This document shows, piece after piece, positions 11,935-12,438 of a DNA stretch of 64,000 nucleotides; within the stretch, counting starts at the first letter, position 1; each line of letters begins with the position of its first letter. The stretch is from Escherichia coli (GTDB taxonomy: Bacteria; Pseudomonadota; Gammaproteobacteria; Enterobacterales; Enterobacteriaceae): the NCBI RefSeq assembly GCF_030013205.1, contig NZ_CP122648.1; one strand, given 5' to 3'. The position numbers were made by a program, and so were the translations under genes. The notes under the pieces are model-generated. The model had not been told where the DNA came from. It saw only the letters and a list, made by a program, of their open reading frames with translations, and searched no databases.

Positions 11935-12438
11935 TTACTGATAGTGTTTTATGTTCAGATAATGCCCGATGACCTTGTCATGCAGCTCCACCGATTTTGA
12001 GAACGACAGTGACTTCCGTCCCAGCCTTGCCAGATGTTGTCTCAGATTCAGATTATGTCGCTCAATGCGCTGAGTGTAACGCTTGCTGATAACGTGCAGC
12101 TTTCCCTTCAGGCGTGATTCATACAGCGGCCAGCCATCCGTCATCTATACCACGACCTCAAAGGCCGACAGCAGGCTCAGAAGACGTTCCAGTGTGGCCA
12201 GAGTGCGTTCACCGAAGACGTGCGCCACAACCGTCCTCCGTATCCTGTCATACGCGTAAAACAGCCAGCGCTGACGTGATTTAGCACCGACGTAGCCCCA
12301 CTGTTCGTCCATTTCAGCGCAGACAATCACATCACTGCCCGGTTGTATGCGCGAGGTTACCGACTGCGGCCTGAGTTTTTTAAGTGACGTAAAACCGTGT
12401 TGAGGCCAACGCCCATAATGCGTGCACTGGCGCGACAT
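11935..12438 (-). pseudogene. insB: IS1 insB interrupted by an in-frame stop
   Basis: Two adjacent same-frame ORFs (97 aa then 69 aa) separated by TAG; reads ...[14 protein letters not shown] where canonical InsB, as I remember it, has ...[13 protein letters not shown]. Confidence 0.6.

Follow-up and report, generated by a model that had tools for sequence, protein, structure and literature searches.

A structurally complete IS1F-type copy with an amber codon in insB, very probably transposase-defective, at the brnT/mdtM locus of Escherichia coli

The IS1 element found in a 64-kb stretch of Escherichia coli DNA (contig NZ_CP122648.1; hereafter the window) is, very probably, an ordinary and already annotated defective copy of the IS1F type, which is structurally complete and defective in its transposase. 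Our analysis supports the view that this copy is non-autonomous and would move only with InsAB' provided by another IS1. It should not be counted as a source of transposase, and it would still be a substrate for mobilisation in trans and for homologous recombination.

An in-frame amber codon interrupts insB in a complete IS1F-type element

Alignments to the IS1F and IS1A copies of K-12 showed a complete IS1 of the IS1F isoform, 768 bp in length, on the minus strand at 11920-12687, with its left end (IRL) at 12687 and its right end (IRR) at 11920. The left terminal inverted repeat, GGTAATGCTGCCAACTTACTGAT (23 bp, 12665-12687, minus strand), was read from the sequence and is identical in K-12 IS1F, and the right one was read at 11920-11942 (minus strand), where its reverse complement is GGTAATGACTCCAACTTACTGAT. 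The two repeats match at 20 of 23 positions, and the length of the element together with terminal repeats beginning GGT(A/G)ATG identifies it as an IS1. A promoter-like match, predicted by a consensus scan, lies at 12680-12653. The window copy differs from K-12 IS1F at five of 768 nucleotides (99.35% identity) and from K-12 IS1A at 70 of 768 (90.9% identity), indicating near-identity to IS1F of K-12 rather than to IS1A, B or D, and the elements in ETEC H10407 and in strain 89-3156 are 100% identical to it. There was no 8-9-bp direct target duplication around the element, the flanks of which are TCGCTGTCG and CGGATTCCA, and the 64-kb window contained no further IS1 copy and no repeats of 40 bp or more.

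The genes are laid out as in other IS1 elements, with insA (zinc ribbon and HTH) followed by insB' (IS1-type DDE) in the -1 phase and an A6C motif linking the two. Intact insA (91 codons, 12357-12632, minus strand) matched the Pfam families Zn_ribbon_InsA (E=5.9e-20) and HTH_Tnp_IS1 (E=4.9e-30), and its product InsA is an IS1 repressor/inhibitor that binds the inverted repeats (PMC12428005). Also intact is the slippery motif for the -1 frameshift that joins insA to insB', TTAAAAAACTC (12373-12383, minus strand; IS1 nt 305-315), which is invariant in comparison with IS1A and IS1F. The whole insB frame spans 11935-12438 (minus strand), and a sequence-only reading of the window had noticed an in-frame TAG in it. 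We found this amber codon at 12145-12147 (minus strand, CTA on the plus strand), at codon 163 of InsAB' and codon 98 of insB (IS1 nt 541-543). Upstream of it lie 97 codons with the N-terminal half of DDE_Tnp_IS1 (12148-12438, minus strand), while the 69 codons plus TAA downstream (11935-12144, minus strand), which start MTDGWPLYE..., carry the C-terminal half of the catalytic domain; the ATG at 12142-12144 directly after the TAG begins the series ATG ACG GAT GGC TGG (M-T-D-G-W).

When insA was read with a -1 shift at the A-run, the conceptual InsAB' ended after 162 of the expected 232 residues, and the window copy therefore lacks the uninterrupted 232-codon InsAB' frame of an autonomous IS1. 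With the stop read as Trp, Pfam DDE_Tnp_IS1 extends over insB residues 37-167 (E=1.3e-74), and profile positions ~63 to 131 are lost through the stop at insB codon 98. Since about half of the DDE domain is lost in this way, the 162-residue fragment of InsAB' is probably catalytically dead.

The stop was created by a G-to-A change at IS1 nt 542 (window 12146), which turned TGG into TAG at a conserved Trp. It had initially been put down to two adjacent substitutions, an account that arises from comparison with IS1A, which reads GTG ATA TGG where the window reads GTG GTA TAG; these two substitutions are 4 nt apart in neighbouring codons, and against intact IS1F-type copies a single G-to-A change is responsible. 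The Ile-to-Val change in the preceding codon is a normal difference of the IS1F lineage, shared by intact copies (GTGGTATGGATG in NCTC9064 and the O157-like strain 120). Such intact copies, called by PGAP as 'IS1-like element IS1F family transposase', are 99.5% identical to the window copy and differ from it in having TGG at codon 163 and an open InsAB' frame; their proteins are WP_227804278.1 (NCTC9064), WP_223409538.1 (AR_0069 and STEC383) and WP_223718721.1 (O157-like strain 120). Canonical IS1, represented by IS1A and IS1E of K-12, shares the length, the gene layout, the frameshift site and a near-identical IRR with the window copy, whereas it diverges at ~9% of nucleotides (70/768 for IS1A), has TGG at codon 163 and is autonomously mobile in K-12 (PMC12428005).

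The window copy is predicted to be non-autonomous and mobilisable in trans

The closest relative with known behaviour is IS1F of K-12 (NC_000913.3 4518472-4519239; insA7 b4294 and insB7 b4576), which has the same 768 bp with 763 of 768 nucleotides identical, the same TAG, an intact insA and A6C motif, and no target-site duplication. It differs from the window copy in its locus, fecI-ykiE/yjhU instead of brnT/mdtM, and by substitutions at IS1 nt 156, 210, 501, 677 and 703. The window copy and the experimentally studied element thus differ at five internal positions, while the first 155 and last 65 nucleotides are identical, so that both ends needed for mobilisation in trans are intact.

The six IS1 copies of K-12 BW25113 were studied in two 2025 papers from one group (PMC12428005, PMC12903888). 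No insertions were detectable from native IS1F, nor from IS1B, IS1C and IS1D, and deletion of IS1A and IS1E abolished IS1 insertions in K-12 (PMC12428005). When InsAB' was over-expressed in trans in the IS1A/IS1E-deleted background, insertions reappeared, and 44% of the 48 that were sequenced came from IS1F, a share that the authors ascribed to its better-matched ends (PMC12903888). Both papers attribute the immobility of IS1F loosely to amino-acid changes and do not mention the amber codon in insB7 (PMC12428005, PMC12903888). We consider this codon the simplest explanation of the immobility of IS1F in K-12, although it may not be the sole cause. Because the window copy shares its ends with K-12 IS1F, which is mobilised in trans, it is expected to be non-autonomous but mobilisable in the same manner. 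The suggestion that the copy is non-autonomous unless complemented in trans is therefore borne out, both by the 162 of 232 residues left of InsAB' and by the near-identical K-12 IS1F, immobile natively and mobilised in trans (PMC12428005, PMC12903888). That element is also the natural variant with the same stop, and being itself an insB pseudogene and not autonomously mobile, it does not represent a functional isoform with this sequence.

Based on these comparisons, we propose that Trp163 of InsAB' was replaced by an amber codon through a single G-to-A transition, and that translation of the element would yield InsA and, after frameshifting, a fragment of at most 162 residues. This fragment would keep the zinc-ribbon/HTH end-binding domain and would lack the C-terminal 70 residues, including about half of the DDE domain. 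With its intact ends, promoter-bearing IRL, insA and A6C site, the element would be left as a substrate for the InsAB' of other IS1 copies, and its 768 bp would also offer homology for recombination and gene conversion.

The element is flanked by brnT and by an ectopic yghX'-yghW' patch

We then considered the two flanks of the element, using the open reading frames and the annotation of the identical locus in H10407. On the IRR side the neighbour is the toxin gene brnT (11449-11763, minus strand), with brnA (~11160-11462) beyond it, away from the IS1, and yjiA (10086-11126) beyond brnA. The brnT/brnA toxin-antitoxin pair (11160-11763) accordingly lies between yjiA and the IS1, and brnT is frameshifted in one carrier, STEC383. 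The window and the IS-free strain 9 align collinearly as far as 11919|11920, where strain 9 goes on with a gene for a restriction endonuclease and with type I R-M genes (M, S, R); since the homology to this IS-free sequence stops exactly at this point, the IRR junction is a clean IS1 end. The block of restriction genes that lies next to brnT in IS-free genomes is missing here, and its position is that of the K-12 'immigration control region'.

On the IRL side, we identified a 270-bp ectopic copy (12688-12957, plus strand) that comprises the 3' end of yghX, the yghX-yghW intergenic region and yghW codons 1 to ~18, and is identical at 264 of 270 nucleotides (98%) to the native locus of a K-12-like genome. 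For the yghX 3' end (12688-12784, plus strand) the annotation reads 'dienelactone hydrolase, missing N-terminus'. The native yghX-yghW locus is ~1.4 Mb away and is intact across the breakpoint in 5,414 of 5,426 genomes, with 672 extra copies, indicating that the patch arose by duplication and not by translocation. An origin of the patch from a yghX locus carrying IS1 found no support in extant genomes: the left junction predicted from it (yghX up to CGGATTCCA followed by IRR) was absent from the 5,426 genomes, and one genome had an IS1 in yghX at another position (pieces ~60 bp apart).

The patch is joined to mdtM through a 7-bp microhomology, CATGCCG, around 12951-12957. Comparison of the window with yghW and K-12 mdtM revealed a chimeric yghW'-'mdtM frame of 419 codons (12903-14162, plus strand), in which the yghW start and ~18 codons run in frame into mdtM from about codon 9, while PGAP calls a 410-aa MdtM here. 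A search of the literature available to us on a yghW-mdtM fusion returned nothing relevant. Judging from this reading frame, MdtM would have a foreign upstream region and N-terminus in the genomes that share the patch junction (662 of 5,426, ~12%). The yghW promoter region and first 18 codons could change the expression of MdtM, a multidrug/bile-salt efflux pump. The chimeric yghW'-mdtM is more unusual than the IS1 element beside it and may matter more. Shortly before the start of the chimeric mdtM, within the upstream sequence copied from yghW, there is also a 26-nt near-perfect palindrome, TCGCTATATATGGCGATATATAGCGA (12865-12890), which could be an operator or a terminator-like hairpin from the yghW locus.

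The neighbouring rearrangement had been taken for an IS1-mediated deletion. The locus does resemble IS1-promoted adjacent deletions in that IRR is precisely joined to IS-free sequence, the restriction block is missing and no target-site duplication is present. It differs from them at the other end, which is joined to the 270-bp yghX-yghW duplicate and then, by the microhomology, to mdtM, an arrangement that a single adjacent deletion does not produce. We therefore rejected a plain adjacent deletion for the window: the IRR neighbour is original, but the IRL neighbour is the ectopic patch instead of native mdtM upstream sequence.

The stop is uncoupled from the rearrangement at the brnT junction

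The IRR junction to the brnT flank was present in 1,112 of 5,426 complete E. coli genomes, and two main arrangements were seen on the IRL side. In type A, which is the state of the window, IS1 abuts the yghX'-yghW' patch (662 genomes); in type B it abuts the native sequence that lies 270 bp upstream of mdtM, the pattern that a plain adjacent deletion would leave (451 genomes). Strain 720632 has the same brnT junction with an inverted yjiJ' flank. The state of codon 163 was determined at sampled loci among the 1,112 junction genomes, comprising five type A and four type B copies. TAG was found in all five type A copies and in one of the four type B copies, and the other three type B copies, from NCTC9064, AR_0069 and STEC383, have TGG, intact with PGAP protein products, at the identical brnT junction and with the native mdtM-upstream flank at IRL, not the patch.

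The TAG itself occurs on more than one haplotype. Type A copies combine it with a private 501A, while type B strain D2 and strain 720632 carry it with 178G, 387T, a 1-bp deletion at nt 465 and 537A. For sites 387 and 542, three of the four possible combinations were observed at the brnT junction, and the fourth, G-G, is in AR_0069 and STEC383. These mixed haplotypes suggest either gene conversion among IS1F-type copies or a recurrent G-to-A change. As intact TGG copies share the identical brnT junction and TAG lies on two haplotypes, the stop is uncoupled from the rearrangement. The view that the stop marks the neighbouring deletion as an old event fails on the same grounds, and the TAG is unusable for dating the loss of the restriction-gene block at the brnT/mdtM locus.

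Comparison with H10407 revealed zero differences over 11388-12924 (brnT, IS1 and patch), while the flanks differ by ~1-5% per 500 bp, indicating that this haplotype is young relative to the strain backgrounds or was spread by recombination. The segment looks like a haplotype block that was spread by recombination rather than inherited vertically over a long time, and the absence of differences from H10407 led us to drop a simple vertical 'old relic' reading.

The TAG allele is common on chromosomes and rare on plasmids

To compare the abundance of the two alleles, a 64-mer that is specific to copies of the IS1F type and has the TAG at its centre, and the same 64-mer with TGG, were used to count exact matches. 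Among E. coli records, the TAG version matched in ~2,881 and the TGG version in ~3,281. Among PLSDB plasmids, 28 records matched the TAG version and at least 2,925 matched the TGG version, which makes TAG ~100-fold rarer than TGG on plasmids. Sampled TAG matches fell into four contexts. Besides brnT/mdtM, these were fecI-ykiE (K-12, Nissle 1917 and E2865, with a truncated copy in E-1246), an O104:H4 island with parB'/IS600', and an hlyCA plasmid from an ETEC strain, and no 9-bp target duplication was found at the TAG copies in these four contexts. The copy in the parB'/IS600' island of O104:H4 2011C-3493 (IS1 at 2500-3267) is a mosaic, IS1F-like to ~nt 630 and IS1A-like from there to IRR, with 14 differences clustered at its 3' end, which is direct evidence of recombination between IS1 isoforms.

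The occurrence of TAG at several loci and on ~28 plasmids indicates that the allele has moved or recurred, and a wholly inert element would need help each time. We propose that the TAG would have moved between loci by trans-mobilisation, hitch-hiking or gene conversion, and not by repeated origin. On E. coli chromosomes the allele is frequent, for the most part in relics fixed at a few loci, and on plasmids it is rare; this is the pattern expected of a dead allele, which would abound in such relics, travel with the mobile fec region and be scarce where active copies turn over.

The same abundance could be read in another way, in which the amber allele is retained for some benefit: the copy would be a repressor locus making InsA only, or InsA together with a DNA-binding but catalytically dead InsAB'(1-162), and would damp other IS1 elements. 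We regard this as very improbable. The allele is indeed very common on chromosomes, insA, the promoter region and the inverted repeats are intact and invariant in all compared copies, and InsA is an established IS1 repressor/inhibitor that binds these repeats (PMC12428005). However, a simpler explanation of the frequency is that a few fixed relic insertions, among them the one in the mobile fec region, have been inherited, and some copies at the brnT junction show additional damage (the 1-bp deletion in D2 and 720632), which looks like neutral decay. An extended version, in which InsA-only loci, maybe with InsAB'(1-162), would damp IS1 genome-wide and gene conversion would spread the amber allele among IS1F-type copies, is also very improbable; if true, it would explain both the mixed TAG and TGG haplotypes at one junction and the abundance of TAG on chromosomes against its ~100-fold rarity relative to TGG on plasmids.

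Some residual autonomy of the element is a still weaker alternative, to which we assign a very small probability. Here UAG would be read through, or translation would terminate and reinitiate at the adjacent ATG to give a two-piece transposase, made of residues 1-162 and a 69-aa C-terminal fragment. The ATG right after the TAG does open a 69-codon frame over the rest of the domain, a GAGG lies 11 nt upstream in IS1F-type copies but not in IS1A, and the TAG allele is found at four or more loci and on ~28 plasmids. Against this, K-12 without IS1A and IS1E gave no IS1 insertions unless InsAB' was supplied exogenously, although IS1F was present (PMC12428005, PMC12903888). Moreover, a search of the window for tRNA genes found none, and hence no suppressor tRNA there, a DDE fold split mid-way would not be expected to reassemble, and the ~100-fold deficit of TAG relative to TGG on plasmids is as expected for a dead allele. 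A defective copy that depends on the InsAB' of other IS1 elements is thus the reading that we prefer.

The stop is genuine and already annotated

Several lines of evidence show that the amber allele of IS1F is already known from annotation and is not private to the window copy. The 801 bp that include the element and both junctions recur at 100% identity in no fewer than 30 independent complete genomes of E. coli, ETEC H10407 among them, and the IRL junction to the yghX' ('dienelactone hydrolase') fragment was found in 662 of 5,426 complete E. coli genomes. RefSeq/PGAP labels the same copy 'IS1 family transposase; programmed frameshift; internal stop' in H10407, 89-3156, 5392 and strain 131, and insB7 (b4576) of K-12 IS1F, with the same TAG, is flagged as a pseudogene in the MG1655 record. 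The view that the TAG arose in sequencing, assembly or polishing, and that the copy is really intact, has practically no chance of being right, since, although a K-12-like assembly, PD007, with TGG and two other differences at the K-12 IS1F locus indicates that assemblies can disagree here, the TAG-bearing 801 bp recurs in independent complete genomes from different laboratories and platforms, the junction is found in the 662 genomes, the MG1655 reference has the same TAG and PGAP has repeatedly called the internal stop. With the stop flagged in RefSeq, the allele shared with the insB7 pseudogene of K-12 and the behaviour of IS1F already measured, the stop itself matters little.

PD007 has a genome of K-12 size, and at its K-12 IS1F site the differences that accompany TGG are at nt 156 and 703; PGAP calls an intact IS1F transposase there. 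This TGG may be an assembly artefact, may come from a non-K-12 strain assembled on a K-12 scaffold, or may reflect a conversion event.
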